64,000 nt of DNA from Candidatus Melainabacteria bacterium. GTDB taxonomy: Bacteria; Cyanobacteriota; Vampirovibrionia; Obscuribacterales; Obscuribacteraceae. A program made the translations under genes and the position numbers. Position 1 is the first letter of the stretch. Each line of letters opens with the position of its first letter. The DNA is taken from assembly GCA_003153555.1 (NCBI GenBank), contig PLZS01000038.1, positions 6,120 to 70,119 on the forward strand, in the 5' to 3' direction. The notes under the pieces were generated by a model that saw nothing but the letters and a program-made list of their open reading frames with translations, was not told where the DNA came from and searched no databases. Of the stretch, positions 51,072 through 64,000 are shown one piece after another.

Positions 51072-51170
51072 TGGCTTGTGGGTCCGCCGTTGCGTGCTAG
51101 CATGATAATAGTTGAACTTTTTTGCTGTGTCAGACGTATAAGTAAGTGATGAGTTTACGAGGTGCACATC
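51072..51170 (+). repeat. conserved leader of the coiled-coil gene family (copy 1)
   Basis: gcttgtgggtccgccgttgcgtgctagcatgataatagttgaacttttttgctgtgtcagacgtataagtaagtgatgagtttacgaggtgca is near-identical to 54242..54339. It contains the palindrome tgctagca, a TTGAAC/TATAAG pair (19-nt spacer) and a GAGG Shine-Dalgarno. Confidence 0.85.
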
Positions 51171-51452
51171 ATGGCTGAATGGGAAACGGCATTTGAAAGG
51201 TTAGCTGGCGAGATGCGCATTGGCTTTGGTCAGGTCGTTTCAGCGGTTCAACAAACCAACGAGCAACTTGTTCAAACCAACCTACGATTGGACCAAACCA
51301 ACGAGCAGCTTAAGGAGTTTAAGCAATCGGTAAACTCAAAGCTGGATGGTATCGGTAGTTATCTCAAATTGATTGACCGGAATTTTGCGGGAGTGGAAGT
51401 GAGACTGACGAAGATAGAGCATCGAGTAGACAGGCTGGAAGACGTAGGGTAG
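51171..51452 (+). CDS. small coiled-coil protein, family copy 1 (3 QTNxxLx heptads)
   Basis: MAEWETAFERLAGEMRIGFGQVVSAVQ, then QTNEQLV QTNLRLD QTNEQLK (51252..51314), then EFKQSVNSKLDGIGSYLKLIDRNFAGVEVRLTKIEHRVDRLEDVG. Confidence 0.7.
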   Translation: MAEWETAFERLAGEMRIGFGQVVSAVQQTNEQLVQTNLRLDQTNEQLKEFKQSVNSKLDGIGSYLKLIDRNFAGVEVRLTKIEHRVDRLEDVG

Positions 51453-51453
51453 G

Positions 51454-51508
51454 ACTTTTTTGCTGTGTCAGACGTATAAGTAAGTGATGAGTTCACGAGG
51501 TGCAGATA
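51454..51508 (+). repeat. short (3' half only) leader, copy 2
   Basis: acttttttgctgtgtcagacgtataagtaagtgatgagttcacgaggtgca. It lacks the tgctagca palindrome and the TTGAAC box and starts 2 nt after the copy-1 stop. Confidence 0.8.
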
Positions 51509-51811
51509 ATGGCTGAATGGGAAACGGCATTTGAAAGATTAGCTGGCGAGATGCGAATTGGCTTTGGTCAGGTCGTTTCAGCGGTTCAACAAACTAACGT
51601 GCGGTTGGACCAAACCAATGAGCAGCTTGTTCAAACCAACCTACGATTGGACCAAACCAACGAGCATCTTAAGGAATTCAAGCTATCCGTAAACTCAAAG
51701 CTGGATGGTATCGGTAGTTACCTCAAACTGATTGACCGGAATTTTGACGGAGTAGAAATGCGACTGACGAAGATCGAGCATCGAGTAGACAGGCTGGAAG
51801 ACGTAGGGTAG
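51509..51811 (+). CDS. small coiled-coil protein, family copy 2 (4 heptads)
   Basis: Same N- and C-terminal modules; the heptad array at 51590..51673 reads QTNVRLD QTNEQLV QTNLRLD QTNEHLK. Confidence 0.7.
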   Translation: MAEWETAFERLAGEMRIGFGQVVSAVQQTNVRLDQTNEQLVQTNLRLDQTNEHLKEFKLSVNSKLDGIGSYLKLIDRNFDGVEMRLTKIEHRVDRLEDVG

Positions 51812-51860
51812 GCGAACAGTAACAATTTTTCCCACCCCGGAATTACCCGTAATTATTGCG

Positions 51861-52496
51861 ATGAAAGAAACGAACACACCGACGCATCTATCAGCAGATG
51901 AGTACTTGCGTGCAGAAGAAGTCAGTACTTTGCGGCGAGAGTATGTAGACGGACGCGTATTCACCATGACCGGCACGACACTCAGGCACAATGCCCTGGT
52001 GAACAACATATATTCCGCGCTTCGCGCACACACAAAAAACGGTCCCTGCAAAGCCTATACAATTGACGTAAAAGTACATGTGCAAAGCGCGAATAGTTTT
52101 TATTATCCCGACGTTGTCGTTACCTGTAGCAAATCGCCTGATAATAGCTTGATTGTGGAGTCTCCAGTTTTTATTGCTGAAGTGTTATCGCGCTCTACTA
52201 GCCTTGTCGACCGGCGCGAGAAAGTGGTCACCTACAAGCAACTTCCCTCGTTGAAGGAATATTTGATTGTTCATCAGACAAAAAAGAAAGTAGAGTTGCA
52301 TCGTAGAATAGATTCTAATTCTTGGGAGATTCTGGAACTGATTCAGGGCGAACTCCTACTCTTAGTGTCCATGCCTTGTGGCCCAATGCGAATAACATTC
52401 GATGACCTGTATGAAGACGTACAGTTCGAATCTGGATTCGTCAAAGAAGAACCAACTGAGTATGAAACATCTCAAGAAGGGGAATTTGATTACTAG
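51861..52496 (+). CDS. Uma2-family (DUF820) endonuclease with acidic tail
   Basis: EYVDGRVFTMTG.T..H, YYPDVVV and IAEVLSRSTSLVDRREKVVTYKQLPSLKEYLI. The tail reads EEPTEYETSQEGEFDY. By eye, roughly half its residues match the 31403..32080 protein. Confidence 0.8.
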   Translation: MKETNTPTHLSADEYLRAEEVSTLRREYVDGRVFTMTGTTLRHNALVNNIYSALRAHTKNGPCKAYTIDVKVHVQSANSFYYPDVVVTCSKSPDNSLIVESPVFIAEVLSRSTSLVDRREKVVTYKQLPSLKEYLIVHQTKKKVELHRRIDSNSWEILELIQGELLLLVSMPCGPMRITFDDLYEDVQFESGFVKEEPTEYETSQEGEFDY

Positions 52497-52566
52497 GTGC
52501 GAGAGCTTTCATCGCTCCAGCAATTCGTTTTAGTGCAACATCAACCCCGAGTGACCGGCAACGCGA

Positions 52567-52666
52567 GCTTGCAGTGGATCTGGCGTTGCGTGCTAGCATG
52601 CTAACAGCTGAACTTTTTTGCGGTGTCAGACGTATAAGTAAGTGATGAGTTCACGAGGTGTGCATA
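52567..52666 (+). repeat. conserved leader, copy 3 (more diverged 5' part)
   Basis: gcgttgcgtgctagcatgctaacagctgaacttttttgcggtgtcagacgtataagtaagtgatgagttcacgaggtgtgca. Confidence 0.8.
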
Positions 52667-53011
52667 ATGGCCGAATGGGAAATGGCATTTGAAAGGTTAG
52701 CTGGCGAGATGCGCATTGGCTTTGGCCAGGTCGTTTCAGCGGTTCAACAAACTAACGTGCGGTTGGACCAAACCAACGAGCAGCTTGTTCAAAGCAACCT
52801 ACGATTGGACCAAACCAACGAGCATCTTGCTCAAACCAACCTACGGTTGGACCAAACCAATGAGCAGCTTAAGGAGTTTAAGCAATCGGTAAACTCAAAG
52901 CTGGATGGTATTGGTAGTTACCTCAAACTGCTTGACCGGAATTTTGACGGAGTAGAAATGCGACTGACGAAGATCGAGCATCGAGTAGACAGGCTGGAAG
53001 ACGTAGGGTAG
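52667..53011 (+). CDS. small coiled-coil protein, family copy 3 (6 heptads)
   Basis: Heptad array 52748..52873: QTNVRLD QTNEQLV QSNLRLD QTNEHLA QTNLRLD QTNEQLK. Confidence 0.7.
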   Translation: MAEWEMAFERLAGEMRIGFGQVVSAVQQTNVRLDQTNEQLVQSNLRLDQTNEHLAQTNLRLDQTNEQLKEFKQSVNSKLDGIGSYLKLLDRNFDGVEMRLTKIEHRVDRLEDVG

Positions 53012-53059
53012 GAAACAACGGCGCATCTATCAGCTAGTAGGTGCGCGAGCTTTCATTGC
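53012..53059 (+). pseudogene. internally deleted remnant of a Uma2 endonuclease gene
   Basis: gaaacaacggcgcatctatcagc resembles 51867..51895 (Uma2 codons 3-12). It is joined directly to tagtaggtgcgcgagctttcattgc, which resembles 52491..52515 (the Uma2 stop plus downstream). About 595 nt of gene interior are missing. Confidence 0.5.
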
Positions 53060-53076
53060 ATTCGTCGTGCTGCGTT

Positions 53077-53331
53077 TTACTCAGTCGGTGGCTTGATTAT
53101 CCCGAGAATGATTCCCACAGTCCGTTCTACTGCTTCCATCGTCGCAGGGGAGACGATGCCTAGTTTCTCTTTCAGCCGCTCATGGGAGATGCAACGCATC
53201 TTCTCGCAAAGGATGTAACTATCTAAAGTCAGATCACCCTCCCCGGCTGGAATGGGGATGCGAGTCCTGACCTTTCGAATTTTACTGGTTATCGGAACGG
53301 CGTAGACGAGCTCGGCGCTAGCAGAATCAGA
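53077..53331 (-). pseudogene. 5'-truncated MazF/PemK-family toxin
   Basis: My hand translation of the minus strand reads ..SAELVYAVPITSKIRKVRTRIPIPAGEGDLTLDSYILCEKMRCISHERLKEKLGIVSPATMEAVERTVGIILGIIKPPTE*. This is the PemK pattern PiTs......v.i.....L...S.il.dqir.i...Rl...lG.ls...m. There is no start codon, and the N-terminal ~35 aa are absent. Confidence 0.55.
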
Positions 53332-53350
53332 ACTATTTGGTCAATCATGC

Positions 53351-53566
53351 TTGCTGACAGCAGCCGCATTTTTTTTGCCGTCGCTGCCTGATTCGCCCTT
53401 CGACGAAGTCATGGCTCTTCCTTATCACTTGTACGTACTTTCCACTCAATATCCCGATGCCGCGAGAATCAGACCAATGCTGGATGCAACAGCCTTTGTT
53501 CTGCTTTTGATCGTCTTCGGTTTTAGCTTAGTCGCACTCACGATCAGGCATAAGAAAAGGGCGTGA
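53351..53566 (+). pseudogene. pstA: C-terminal fragment of phosphate ABC permease PstA
   Basis: Only 71 codons, ending in a TM helix plus a basic tail ([23 protein letters not shown]). It is coupled to the pstB start (GTGA overlap), as in pst operons. Confidence 0.5.
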
Positions 53567-54185
53567 TATTCATGGTCAATAAGGAAACTGTAAATGATGT
53601 GGCAGACCTTGACAGGTTGGCACCAAAAATACTCATCGAGAACTTGAACATTTTTTACGGTGACATTCATGCTGTTCGTTCAGTGAACATGGCATTACCA
53701 GACAAGAAAGTGACAGCCCTGATTGGTCCGTCAGGTTGTGGCAAGAGCACCCTGTTGCGTTCTTTGAATCGCATGAACGACTTGCGTTCAGAGATAAGAA
53801 CGACCGGGTGCGTTCTGATAGATCGGTTTAATATCTATGATAAAGCAATTGATATCAATCAACTTCGGAGAAAAGTGGGCATCGTTTTTCAAAAAGCGAA
53901 TCCATTTCCTATGTCCATCTTCGACAATATTGCGTACGGTCCGCGAGTGCACGGGTATTCATAATCAGAACCAGCACGGCGATGGTCGAGCAACTGATCC
54001 GCCAACTTTGCGACAAACTCTCCATTGTCGTTGTTACTCACAACATGCAGCAAGCGGCAAGAATTTCTCACCGGACAGGTTTTATGTACAAGGGCTCACT
54101 CGTCGAGTTCGGCGAAACTTCAGCATTTTTCAGCAACCCGAAAGAGGAGCAGTCCCAGAAATACCTTGCAGGTGCATTTGGCTAA
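53563..54185 (+). pseudogene. pstB: phosphate import ATP-binding protein PstB with internal deletion
   Basis: The N-part has Walker [10 protein letters not shown] and [22 protein letters not shown], then a stop at 53964. The C-part (53982..54185) resumes at VEQLIRQLCDKLSIVVVTHNMQQAARISHRTGFMYKGSLVEFG. The LSGGQQQR signature and Walker B segment are missing. Confidence 0.75.
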
Positions 54186-54241
54186 TACATTTCCCGAGTT
54201 TTAATTTCCGAACATGGCATCTAGAGCTAAGTCTAGCTCAC

Positions 54242-54339
54242 CTGCTTGTGGGTTCGCCGTTGCGTGCTAGCATGATAATAGTTGAACTTTTTTGCTGTGT
54301 CAGACGTATAAGTAAGTGATGAGTTCACGAGGTGCACAC
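54242..54339 (+). repeat. conserved leader, copy 4
   Basis: Near-identical to 51072..51170 but 1 nt shorter just before the start position (gcacacac vs gcacatcat). Confidence 0.85.
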
Positions 54340-54726
54340 ACGGCTGAATGGGAAATGGCATTTGAAAGGTTAGCCGGCGAGATGCGCATTGGCTTTGGTC
54401 AGGTCGTTTCGGCGGTTCAACAAACCAACGAGCAACTCGTTCAAACCAACCTGCGATTGGACCAAACCAACGAGCAGCTTGTTCAAAGCAACCTACGATT
54501 GGACCAAACCATCCTAAGATTGGACCAAACCAACCTACGATTGGACCAAACCAACCTGCGATTGGACCAAACCAACGAGCATCTTCAGGAATTTAAGCTA
54601 TCTGTAAACTCAAAGCTGGATGGTATCGGTAGCTATCTCAAACTGATTGACCGGAATTTTGTCGGAGTGGAAATGCGACTGACGAAGATCGAGCATCGAG
54701 TAGACAGGCTGGAAGACGTAGGGTAA
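54319..54726 (+). CDS. small coiled-coil protein, family copy 4 (8 heptads), altered start
   Basis: The family ATG is ACG here (54340-42). ATG 54319 from the leader is in frame and gives MSSRGAHT+AEWEMAF... The heptad array is 54421..54588. Confidence 0.6.
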   Translation: MSSRGAHTAEWEMAFERLAGEMRIGFGQVVSAVQQTNEQLVQTNLRLDQTNEQLVQSNLRLDQTILRLDQTNLRLDQTNLRLDQTNEHLQEFKLSVNSKLDGIGSYLKLIDRNFVGVEMRLTKIEHRVDRLEDVG

Positions 54727-57783: not shown

Positions 57784-58554
57784 ATGCACAAACTGCTTCA
57801 GAAAAATGATAATTGCATAGCAAGGCGGCGAGCAGTTATAGGCGCGCTATTTATCATGGTTCCTTTTCTATGCAACCATTCACTTGCTTCCGGATCCGAC
57901 GGACTTGTCATTGCTCAATCAGGAATCTTTTCTGGCGAAACCACTACATACCTAAAGCCTTTAGTTGCTATCAAGGTTGTAAGACAAAAGTCGAATATGT
58001 GTTTCATTTCAACAGCACCGAAGTGGGACATCATTCTCACGAACACCAAAACAAAGACTTGGTGCCATCTCACCAATGATACATTCAAGGGTCCAATTAA
58101 CAGTTCGGCAATGTTGATTTTAACGGGACAGAATGTAGAAAAATTGAATTGGATTAAGCACGAGCAAAAAGCAACAACCATGTTTGGAATTCCGGTTTTA
58201 GAATATCAAAGCTCATTAGTCGATACAAACACTGGCCAACTGTCGCCGCACCTGAAGGCAATTCTGTTCGTAATGAAGGATGATGGAATTCCAAAAACTG
58301 TAGCTTCAGCAGCGTGCAGATTTCTCGCTTTCCGCTGTGCATTAGGAGCGCTGCCATTGAAAATAGTTTACCCCAAACACACCGACAGCATGATCGTGAT
58401 GCATACAACTTCTGTGCAACACAGAATAGTTAAGAATGCTGAATTTGAGGTGCCGCAGGGATTTACGAAAGTCGCGAACGAGCAAAGTGTTGTTCGAGAC
58501 ATCGCCGCTCAAGACGCGATCGAACAGATGGTGAATTCTATGGGTGGGAAATAA
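57784..58554 (+). CDS. hypothetical secreted protein (APKW-motif family)
   Basis: Signal-like AVIGALFIMVPFLCNHSLASG. Distant paralog of 14835..15677. Its last 64 nt plus 8 nt downstream are copied exactly at 63043..63114. Confidence 0.55.
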   Translation: MHKLLQKNDNCIARRRAVIGALFIMVPFLCNHSLASGSDGLVIAQSGIFSGETTTYLKPLVAIKVVRQKSNMCFISTAPKWDIILTNTKTKTWCHLTNDTFKGPINSSAMLILTGQNVEKLNWIKHEQKATTMFGIPVLEYQSSLVDTNTGQLSPHLKAILFVMKDDGIPKTVASAACRFLAFRCALGALPLKIVYPKHTDSMIVMHTTSVQHRIVKNAEFEVPQGFTKVANEQSVVRDIAAQDAIEQMVNSMGGK

Positions 58555-58575
58555 CGCTTGAGCAGTTTCCGCTGA

Positions 58576-61972: not shown

Positions 61973-62308
61973 CTATTTTATGCGCTTATCACAAGAAGCT
62001 GTCAGCGGTCGAGCACGTTTGACCCGCTCGCGTTCTCGGGGCGAGTGCATCGCCTCCCATAGATCGCTGCGCCGCTGCACGTTCAGCCAGAAATCAGGGC
62101 TGTTGCCAAATACGCGGGCAAGGATGAGCGCGGTCGGGGCAGTCACTGCCCTGCGCTGGTTGCACAGCTCGTTGACGTGCTTGCGTTGTACGCCCATCGC
62201 GTTAGCCAACGCGCTTTGCGTCAGTCCCATCGGCTCCATGAACTCTTCGATCAGAATTTCGCCTATGCTCACCGGCTTACGCTTCGTTGTCAACACAAAC
62301 CACCTCAC
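61973..62308 (-). CDS. higA: HigA-family antitoxin (XRE HTH)
   Basis: PVSIGEILIEEFMEPMGLTQSALANAMGVQRKHVNELCNQRRAVTAPTALILARVFGNSPDFWLNVQ. Confidence 0.85.
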   Translation of the reverse strand: MRWFVLTTKRKPVSIGEILIEEFMEPMGLTQSALANAMGVQRKHVNELCNQRRAVTAPTALILARVFGNSPDFWLNVQRRSDLWEAMHSPRERERVKRARPLTASCDKRIK

Positions 62309-63042: not shown

Positions 63043-63114
63043 TGTTCGAGACATCGCCGCTCAAGACGCGATCGAACAGATGGTGAATTCTATGGGTGGG
63101 AAATAACGCTTGAG
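63043..63114. repeat. exact 72-nt copy of the 3' end of gene 57784..58554
   Basis: tgttcgagacatcgccgctcaagacgcgatcgaacagatggtgaattctatgggtgggaaataacgcttgag is identical (72/72) to 58491..58562, including the stop codon and 8 nt beyond. Confidence 0.95.
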
Positions 63115-63148: not shown

Positions 63149-63171
63149 GGAACGTGGAAGAAGCGTTATGT
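63149..63171. repeat. exact 23-nt copy of a segment near the higB (48244..48552) 3' end
   Basis: ggaacgtggaagaagcgttatgt equals 48514..48536. It abuts the stop codon of the nucleotidyltransferase gene. Confidence 0.85.
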
Positions 63172-64000
63172 CACTCTTCATCTAACCGATTGAAATGCCT
63201 ATCATAGCCGCCTTTAAGGAAGCGGATAGTAATTCTTGGCACGTGCTCCAGTAAAAGATTGACGGGTCTAATACAACGGTAAAGAGGAAACAGCGAAGTA
63301 GGCAGTTTTACTGAAAGCAGATCATCCAATGTAGGCTTAATACAAAGCTCGGTAAGTAAGCTGAACTTCTCTGTGAACTCTTCTTTTAAATTCAATACAT
63401 ACAGCCAATTTTTAAACTCCTTCCACTGCGAAGCAGTTGGTTTCGAGCGAAAACGACTTGTTATTTCCTCGGCCATGCTGCGCACTACCGCATCGCTGTG
63501 TATTTTCAGCAAAATCGGCTCTGGCAGCTTAGTACCAGGTAAAAAAGTAGACAAATGCAAACCTAATAACAACATCCTTTCGGCGCGCAACTGATTCGCC
63601 AAATTTAGTAACTTCTGCCAATTAATATCCGGAACAGCGTCCAGGAATTCGGCTACATCAGTGACCCAAGTTAGCGAACTCCATGCATGTTTACTGGCAT
63701 GCGCGCAAAGCATTAACAAAGTCAACTCATTATTCAATGAAGTTATCTTTGCTCCTTGCAATTCCCACATCTTCAAGTTGTTCTGCAGGTCCTGGTTTGA
63801 GAGTGGAAAGTACTGATACGAAAGCACTTTCCAATGCAGATCAACATAGACATTCTTGTCTTCATTGTAAAAAGCATATTCGTGGCAAAAATCAAGCAGC
63901 TCCGCAGACTGAAAGAACCTCTCGTCGAACGTTCGACCGCGCCATTTACACGGTTTGTAGCCACGGGCTTTAAGAAGGATTTGCGCCGCGCCTACGAATT
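63171..64000 (-). CDS. nucleotidyltransferase-family protein (NTP_transf_5-like), 5' end beyond the window
   Basis: The frame stays open to the right edge (..FVGAAQILLKARGYKPCKWRGRTFDERFFQSAELLDFCHEYAFYNEDKNVYVDLHWKVLSYQYF..). VDLHW and the later HASKHAW.SL.W..D motifs are typical of PF14907-type proteins, from memory. Confidence 0.6.
   Translation of the reverse strand, partial: FVGAAQILLKARGYKPCKWRGRTFDERFFQSAELLDFCHEYAFYNEDKNVYVDLHWKVLSYQYFPLSNQDLQNNLKMWELQGAKITSLNNELTLLMLCAHASKHAWSSLTWVTDVAEFLDAVPDINWQKLLNLANQLRAERMLLLGLHLSTFLPGTKLPEPILLKIHSDAVVRSMAEEITSRFRSKPTASQWKEFKNWLYVLNLKEEFTEKFSLLTELCIKPTLDDLLSVKLPTSLFPLYRCIRPVNLLLEHVPRITIRFLKGGYDRHFNRLDEE

Follow-up and report, generated by a model that had tools for sequence, protein, structure and literature searches.

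The Bdr proteins of Borrelia are plasmid-borne proteins of spirochaetes with an 11-residue central repeat and a C-terminal hydrophobic membrane anchor. Trimeric autotransporter adhesins (TAAs) have stalks that contain [I/V]xxNTxx heptads with Asn layers at core position d, N/T pairs at d/e, and a position a that is bracketed by Arg at g and Asp at b, and the designed "TDENTKR" coiled coils were derived from these stalk heptads (Hartmann et al., PMC13580157). A stretch of 64,000 nt from contig PLZS01000038.1 of a Candidatus Melainabacteria bacterium, a member of the uncultured Obscuribacterales, which are related to cyanobacteria but not photosynthetic, is here called the window and used for all coordinates. 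It was found to contain four paralogous genes (copies 1 to 4, or c1 to c4) for small proteins with common N- and C-terminal modules and 3, 4, 6 and 8 seven-residue units between them. With a probability of about 0.55, these genes represent an undescribed family of cytoplasmic homo-oligomeric coiled-coil rods, the length of which is changed by repeat recombination while the heptad phase is kept. Length-polymorphic coiled-coil repeat proteins are already known as a kind; it is the family itself that is undescribed.

Analysis of the open reading frames (ORFs), the protein alignment and Tandem Repeats Finder (TRF) confirmed the original prediction of four plus-strand genes with shared end modules and in-frame arrays of 3, 4, 6 and 8 units of 21 nt, and the alignment of the four copies also confirmed that length is stepped in whole heptads. 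The predicted sizes of 93, 100 and 114 aa were correct, but the 128 aa given for copy 4 covered only its aligned part, and its ORF has 135 aa. Periods of 21 nt and 42 nt were reported by TRF in the arrays. The unit pattern occurred 20 times within the four genes, and 3 one-mismatch matches were found elsewhere (0.78 expected for the whole window). The heptads alternate in two flavours, QTNEQLV and QTNLRLD, which gives a 14-residue super-repeat, with QSN and QTI as further variants in the array, and the addition of a single double unit of 42 nt to copy 2 gives copy 3. In the 73 codons that make up the N- and C-modules, the proportion of synonymous differences (pS) among the four copies was 0.16-0.21 and the ratio of nonsynonymous to synonymous differences (pN/pS) was 0.10-0.20, and a similar range was obtained between the window copies and copies of the related lineages L003 and L092. 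The four copies are therefore old paralogs under purifying selection, neither recent nor assembly duplicates. In copy 4 the canonical start is mutated, with ACG at 54340-54342 where the other copies have ATG, and a 1-nt deletion puts an upstream ATG at 54319 in frame, which adds a 7-residue extension. This ATG lies 7 nt downstream of the TATAAG hexamer, and the exact 135-aa product (P0001) was called in public assemblies; copy 4 may be translated from a leaderless mRNA, or it may be decaying. The coordinates of the genes and their upstream regions are shown in Table 1.

Table 1. Coordinates of the four paralogous genes and of their upstream regions in the window
Feature	Position	Strand	Details
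Full upstream region of copy 1	51089..51170	+	Alignment of 8 leaders, divergence, 16-mer distribution
Copy 1 (c1)	51171..51452	+	93 aa, 3 heptads, array 51252-51314; single helix predicted by AlphaFold2
Short leader of copy 2	51455..51508	+	3' half only, from CTTTTTTGCTG
Copy 2 (c2)	51509..51811	+	100 aa, 4 heptads, array 51590-51673
Full upstream region of copy 3	52585..52666	+	Palindrome 52591-52598
Copy 3 (c3)	52667..53011	+	114 aa, 6 heptads, array 52748-52873; single helix predicted by AlphaFold2
Full upstream region of copy 4	54259..54339	+	Palindrome 54265-54272, TATAAG 54307-54312
Copy 4 (c4)	54319..54726	+	135-aa ORF, 8 heptads, array 54421-54588

Two metagenome assemblies in the ENA, obtained from different samples, covered the same 19.7 kb of the window, ERZ27254241 with 100% identity and ERZ19978165 with 99.95% identity and free of gaps. 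The repeat counts were identical in both, and c1, c2 and c3 were called in both as genes of 93, 100 and 114 aa. An assembly expansion of a single gene, or repetitive non-coding DNA that is open by chance, would agree with the missing canonical ATG of copy 4 and with the absence of the exact c1-c3 sequences from the protein collection. Against this stand the same gap-free structure and the same gene calls in two assemblies of different samples, the unique flanks of each copy, a pS of ~0.18 with a pN/pS of 0.1-0.2, and relatives that number in the hundreds. The artefact or non-gene explanation is effectively refuted already and retains next to no probability, and the four copies of the original prediction are four separate genes.

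AlphaFold2 (AF2) monomer predictions made with the family alignment showed one uninterrupted helix in copy 1 (residues 2-92, predicted local distance difference test (pLDDT) 96.0) and in copy 3 (residues 2-113, pLDDT 94.7), in agreement with the all-helical proteins proposed in the original prediction. At 0.148 nm per residue, the predicted rod lengths for c1 to c4 were ~13.8, 14.8, 16.9 and 18.9-20.0 nm. Register analysis showed a hydrophobic stripe at every 7th residue from A12 to L89, accompanied by a second seam, which in the N half is offset by +3 (F8, M15, V22, T29, T36, T43, F50) and in the C half by +4 (L58, L65, F72, L79, V86); the switch from +3 to +4 is a stutter at residues 50-58. 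The register of the repeat is most likely L(a) D/V(b) Q(c) T(d) N(e) x(f) R/Q(g), with a half-polar core, and in this register Arg(g) and Asp(b) bracket position a. The top profile matches in the PDB were trimeric polar coiled coils, namely coronavirus (CoV) heptad repeat 1 (HR1; 5zuv, E=3e-7), reovirus sigma-1, HA2 and a TAA adhesin. By analogy with these, a trimer appears to be the most likely oligomer; the likeness to PDB entries and TAAs would bear on how the protein works and not on homology.

Each protein is thus pictured as one long alpha-helix that would associate with its like, parallel and in register, to give a homo-oligomeric coiled coil that is most likely trimeric, with both the oligomer state and the register inferred. 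The hydrophobic N-module and the canonical five-heptad hydrophobic C-module would hold the oligomer together, and the half-polar heptad array would act as a spacer between them, at ~1 nm per heptad. A structural or scaffolding role as a spacer in the cell may be supposed for such a rod. One d position in the core of the C-module, that of V75 in copy 1, is Val in the window clade and His in most of the distant members (P0009, P0014, P0016 and many others; ..NGxIxxHExRI..), and this His could form a buried layer as a metal or pH site.

A helical hairpin or six-helix bundle was considered as another arrangement, in which D-G-I-G forms a turn and the 31-residue C-helix packs back on the polar repeat helix as HR2 does on HR1, so that the repeat number would set the uncovered extent of the N-helix. 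A CoV HR1-linker-HR2 construct gave the best profile match in the PDB, and in the HMMER alignment its linker insertion falls exactly at DGIG; the D, G and G residues are near-invariant across the family, and the L-type heptad exposes Leu at position f. The AF2 helix, however, is continuous through DGIG with pLDDT >90 in two paralogs, and the continuous hydrophobic stripe takes in I61, which sits between the glycines. The conserved phase of the N- and C-anchors described below is predicted by a continuous coiled coil and is not required by a hairpin, and the spike-protein match is compositional, with Pfam CoV_S2 at 16.6 bits against a cut-off of 40. The hairpin is accordingly regarded as quite unlikely. 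Also regarded as unlikely is a natural cytoplasmic "polar zipper", in which water or ions would be bound by marginally stable core layers of Thr, Asn and Gln, and temperature, ionic strength or a specific ion would alter assembly or rod stiffness; the co-regulated paralogs of 3-8 heptads would then provide graded thresholds or lengths as a tunable ruler or sensor. If true, extended polar-core heptads would here underlie a natural system other than an adhesin for the first time.

The architecture recurs in a wider family. Large protein collections yielded many small proteins in which a short N-terminal part containing ELRxGF is followed by (DQTNxRL)n, with n variable, and by F(R/K)xEVxxKLDGIGxYLRSINGxxxxHExRIxxLExRVxxLE. 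The search matched 13 clusters at E<1e-30, 186 at E<1e-10 and 2715 at E<1e-3, the last of which take in generic coiled coils, and the three named core members were all Obscuribacterales or Melainabacteria proteins from metagenome-assembled genomes (MAGs) by their NCBI names. Among the 58 members that carry both the GF and the DGIG anchor, 44 had an anchor spacing of 1 mod 7 and 10 had one of 5 mod 7, which corresponds to heptads with a stutter of 4 residues added, at distances that span 29-110 residues. All four window copies have both end modules with whole heptads between them and belong to the majority class. The heptad phase is conserved family-wide while length is free. Repeat number differed by at least 1 between near-identical proteins of different samples (P0012/P0013 and P0043/P0183), and in one distant lineage two paralogs, one of 114 aa and one of 139 aa, lie 5 kb apart. 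Recombination or slippage between 21/42-nt units would shift array length in frame, as would unequal recombination or conversion between paralogs, with selection keeping the heptad phase between the end modules and not the length.

In the sister lineage L003, which is ~86% identical, the family was found at the same place, downstream of a phosphomannomutase gene, with three copies. One has 6 heptads and is truncated, and the other two form a tandem pair with 2 and 3 heptads, compared with 3 and 4 in c1-c2. The tandem junction of c1 and c2 is also present in L003 (P0004-P0003); the tandem pair therefore predates the split of the lineages, and the repeat numbers have changed since. Copy 1 is a mosaic of two L003 copies, and two strains that are 99.95% identical differ by 5 clustered single-nucleotide polymorphisms in the leader and N-terminus of c1 that recreate the L003-type allele. 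The assembly with 99.95% identity (L001) differs from the window by 10 mismatches, all of them in two clusters, at 51156-51212 (57 nt) and 62147-62297 (151 nt), the first of which alters c1 by T6M and R10K to the sister-lineage allele. The clusters suggest short conversion or recombination tracts, or a chimeric assembly of co-occurring strains. The first L003 copy (P0006) is truncated after KLDGI by an inserted gene pair on the opposite strand (147 and 86 aa; L003 8841-9489, minus strand) with no Pfam match on record. Directly past the last L003 family copy, 63 nt (L003 10295-10357) are 98% the reverse complement of window 63171-63233, where a minus-strand ORF ends 8.4 kb downstream of copy 4; the family cluster is therefore directly adjoined by a rearrangement breakpoint. 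The phosphomannomutase (PGM/PMM) beside the window copies showed 78% identity to that of a Candidatus Obscuribacterales MAG and 76% to that of Cyanobacteria bacterium SZAS-4, and near this gene in more distant Obscuribacterales loci the family was absent (0 of 80 related loci).

The different lengths could themselves be selected, so that the 3, 4, 6 and 8 heptads form a co-regulated set of rods that fixes different distances or tunes one. Such graded rulers or spacers would agree with purifying selection on all four lengths under one shared regulatory region, with the three copies of different length that the related species retains at the same locus, and with the two paralogs in the distant lineage. 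On the other side, the positional counterparts in the sister lineage have other heptad numbers than c1 and c2, the relatives are mostly single-copy, repeat number varies in near-identical proteins of different samples, and length across the family ranges from ~1 to >8 heptads. The pattern therefore looks like length drift under a phase constraint only, and selected rulers are considered unlikely. The molecular-ruler idea of the original prediction was neither confirmed nor refuted; the heptad phase is conserved family-wide and the length is not.

A conserved leader of ~100 nt containing TTGAAC, a TATAAG box and GAGG had been described upstream of the genes. Its presence in copies 1, 3 and 4, with only the 3' half in copy 2, was reproduced, but the well-conserved part is about 82 nt (GTTGCG...ATG), and the hexamers, although present, fit sigma-70 poorly and went uncalled in the sigma-70 scan. 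The copy 1 leader contains the palindrome TGCTAGCA at 51095-51102, TTGAAC at 51112-51117, TATAAG at 51137-51142 and the GAGG Shine-Dalgarno at 51160-51163. Within the window, TGCTAGCA was present in the three full leaders only, and a 39-nt leader core had 4 occurrences against 0 expected. Eight leaders of three lineages were nearly invariant in the alignment. Over the 82 nt, divergence among six stand-alone copies of the three lineages was 0.06 per site compared with a pS of ~0.18, so the leader is about three times better conserved, and the 16-mer GTTGCGTGCTAGCATG was confined to the leaders of stand-alone family copies in the three lineages.

A structured RNA leader was rejected, since folding z-scores were between -1.2 and +0.3, with no stable RNA fold in the leaders, and no Rfam match was found over 48-58 kb of the window. 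Because of these two results, the leader is read as putative operator and promoter DNA with a 5' untranslated region of about 20 nt and a GAGG Shine-Dalgarno. As the same constrained 82-nt region is present on each stand-alone copy, the copies are probably controlled together through one DNA-binding factor. The palindrome, the promoter-like hexamers and the Shine-Dalgarno all belong to this region, the promoter role of which is inferred. The copy 2 leader starts 2 nt past the stop codon of copy 1, and tandem second copies retain only the last ~55 nt of the leader. The terminator and promoter scan called no terminator between copies 1 and 2, and copy 2 is probably co-transcribed with copy 1. 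A minus-strand sigma-70-like sequence, CTGACA-17-TATTAT (10/12), was seen inside the c1 and c4 leaders (51105-51133 and 54275-54303) and was rejected as a promoter, as it is not conserved in the leader of c3 or in those of other lineages.

Around and between the window copies, the analysis showed a Uma2 gene, HigBA-type modules, a MazF fragment and pstA/pstB remnants, so the location among toxin-antitoxin (TA) debris and nuclease genes was as predicted. The debris between c3 and c4 (53077-53300, minus strand; 53351-53566, plus strand; 53563-53964 and 53982-54185, plus strand) contains a MazF/PemK-like toxin reduced to its C-terminal two-thirds and PstA reduced to its C-terminal end, as well as a PstB that an internal deletion or frameshift has split. 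Further downstream, an exact 72-nt direct repeat (58491-58562 and 63043-63114) is the 3' end of the ORF 57784-58554, duplicated 4.55 kb downstream. The repeats flank genes for DUF192, AAA_14/DUF4143, HigB/HTH_3 and NTP_transf_5, and the segment between them looks like an insertion with a duplicated target or gene end. No tRNA was found in the window, and the inverted-repeat search revealed no mobile-element ends.

This setting had led to the proposal of an accessory function in defence, of phage origin or in regulation, and a membership in a TA, anti-phage defence or prophage module would agree with the position of the window copies among Uma2, three HigB-type modules, the MazF fragment and the AAA_14/DUF4143 gene, as well as with the L003 copy that is interrupted by an inserted two-gene module. 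The wider data did not agree with it. Neither 50,697 phage genomes nor 2.9 million viral contigs contained a relative, and phage origin was rejected for this reason; one weak coiled-coil match to a plasmid, inside a Streptomyces EndoU protein, was dismissed. The best PADLOC match reached 21.7 bits and lay in the coiled-coil arms of LmuB, JetC or ZorA, and the PHROGs matches were sub-threshold noise. Relatives in other lineages are stand-alone genes beside unrelated housekeeping genes and never beside Uma2; eight other loci had such neighbours and no Uma2 or TA partner, and no neighbour was conserved across 9 loci. The GC content at the locus was unremarkable, and the debris is better explained by insertions into a recombination-prone paralog cluster. 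A TA, defence or prophage function is considered very improbable, and this part of the original prediction is not upheld.

For the window copies, no model of Pfam, NCBIfam, PADLOC or PHROGs passed its threshold, and only sub-threshold coiled-coil noise was obtained, consistent with the earlier remark that the family is not recognised. The best Pfam match, DUF1664 (PF07889), scored 25.5, 22.9 and 14.9 bits for c1, c3 and c4 against a gathering threshold of 34.6, and this match is coiled-coil composition. Methyl-accepting chemotaxis protein, the Joint Genome Institute (JGI) name of several relatives, was rejected, with no MCPsignal match and with TarH at 19.2 against 25.2 bits and sCache_4 at 17.6 against 22.1 bits. 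WXG100 (PF06013) was rejected as well, at 16.2 against 27.3 bits, with W4 N-terminal and no hairpin predicted. No fused domain was found, as the long profile-matched proteins were generic coiled coils, one of them a TAA. The GTDB genome scan with the family patterns gave no confirmed locus, the metagenome contig scan gave one distant family locus only, and full-text literature searches on the repeat peptides, on Obscuribacterales coiled-coil proteins and on ssr2422 gave nothing relevant. The genes are accordingly taken as an undescribed family of small, presumably cytoplasmic proteins.

Several points weigh against the coiled-coil rod as proposed. An alternative continuous register with N at a and L at d would favour dimers, and the C-module pattern with a=L and d=I/V would fit a tetramer by GCN4 rules. 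Monomer AF2 may also have missed a turn at the near-invariant D-G-[IV]-G within the helix. The spacer between TTGAAC and TATAAG is 19 nt and TATAAG is without the final T, which makes them a poor sigma-70 match, and copy 4, without its canonical start codon, may be decaying. Multi-copy clusters were found in three lineages only and most relatives are single-copy, and a set of lengths is therefore no general requirement. Since no conserved neighbour, fused domain or homolog indicates a role, "structural spacer" is only the default reading for a rod shape.

The result defines an unannotated family in MAGs of uncultured Obscuribacterales and Melainabacteria, for which the end-module motifs and the leader 16-mer can serve as anchors for finding members. 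Conserved phase together with free length constitutes a clean natural experiment. The biological pay-off is uncertain, and the value lies chiefly in coiled-coil structural biology and in the annotation of Obscuribacterales/Melainabacteria genomes.

In comparison with known systems, the formal similarity to the Borrelia Bdr proteins noted in the original prediction was retained, as both are small paralogs with conserved N- and C-terminal parts and a central in-frame array of differing copy number. The likeness does not go beyond form, as the window repeat has a period of 7 aa (21 nt) and not 11 aa, and the window C-terminus, ...RVDRLEDVG, is charged and without a membrane anchor; in a comparison made with Pfam only, no Bdr family was among the matches at E up to 10. 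The coronavirus S2 HR1 region, the best PDB match, shares Q/N/T-rich heptads and a polar trimeric core, after which comes a helix that is more hydrophobic. This likeness is compositional only, with CoV_S2 (PF01601) at 13.5-16.6 bits against 40; there is no fusion peptide, transmembrane segment or viral context, and the AF2 monomers are straight helices with no hairpin. SlyX, ZapB and Mycoplasma DUF16 are likewise all-helical proteins of ~70-130 aa with no other domains, encoded by stand-alone genes, and DUF16 is also a multi-paralog coiled-coil family. Scores were low for SlyX (PF04102), the JGI label of relative P0003 (c1 13.4 bits, E=0.12, cut-off 30), for ZapB (17.1 against 31.5 bits) and for DUF16 (16.5 against 40 bits), and all three are without the QTNxRLD array or the KLDGIGxYL module.

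The differences from TAAs are that the order in the family is T-N (T at d and N at e, LxQTNxx) in place of [I/V]xxNTxx, that no YadA domain (head, YadA_stalk or YadA_anchor) was among the Pfam matches of c1, c3 and c4 at E up to 10, and that the NCBIfam TAA matches reached at most 20 bits against cut-offs of at least 500. Direct reading of MAEWETAFERLAGEMRIGFGQ showed no hydrophobic h-region of a signal peptide, and the family proteins have only 90-135 aa, are presumably cytoplasmic and have no detectable homology to TAAs. The likeness to the TAA stalks lies in long consecutive runs of heptads in which one core residue is aliphatic and the other small and polar, an Asn/Thr pair at d/e with Arg g and Asp b flanking a, hydrophobic adaptor segments at the ends, and variable repeat number; the family profile also cross-matches a YadA-type adhesin stalk, and TAA entries were matched in the PDB and NCBIfam. 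Up to eight consecutive half-polar heptads with hydrophobic caps are the layout that designers recently attempted from adhesin motifs (PMC13580157), and a small soluble natural family with such a layout would suit the study of folding, oligomer choice and ion binding.

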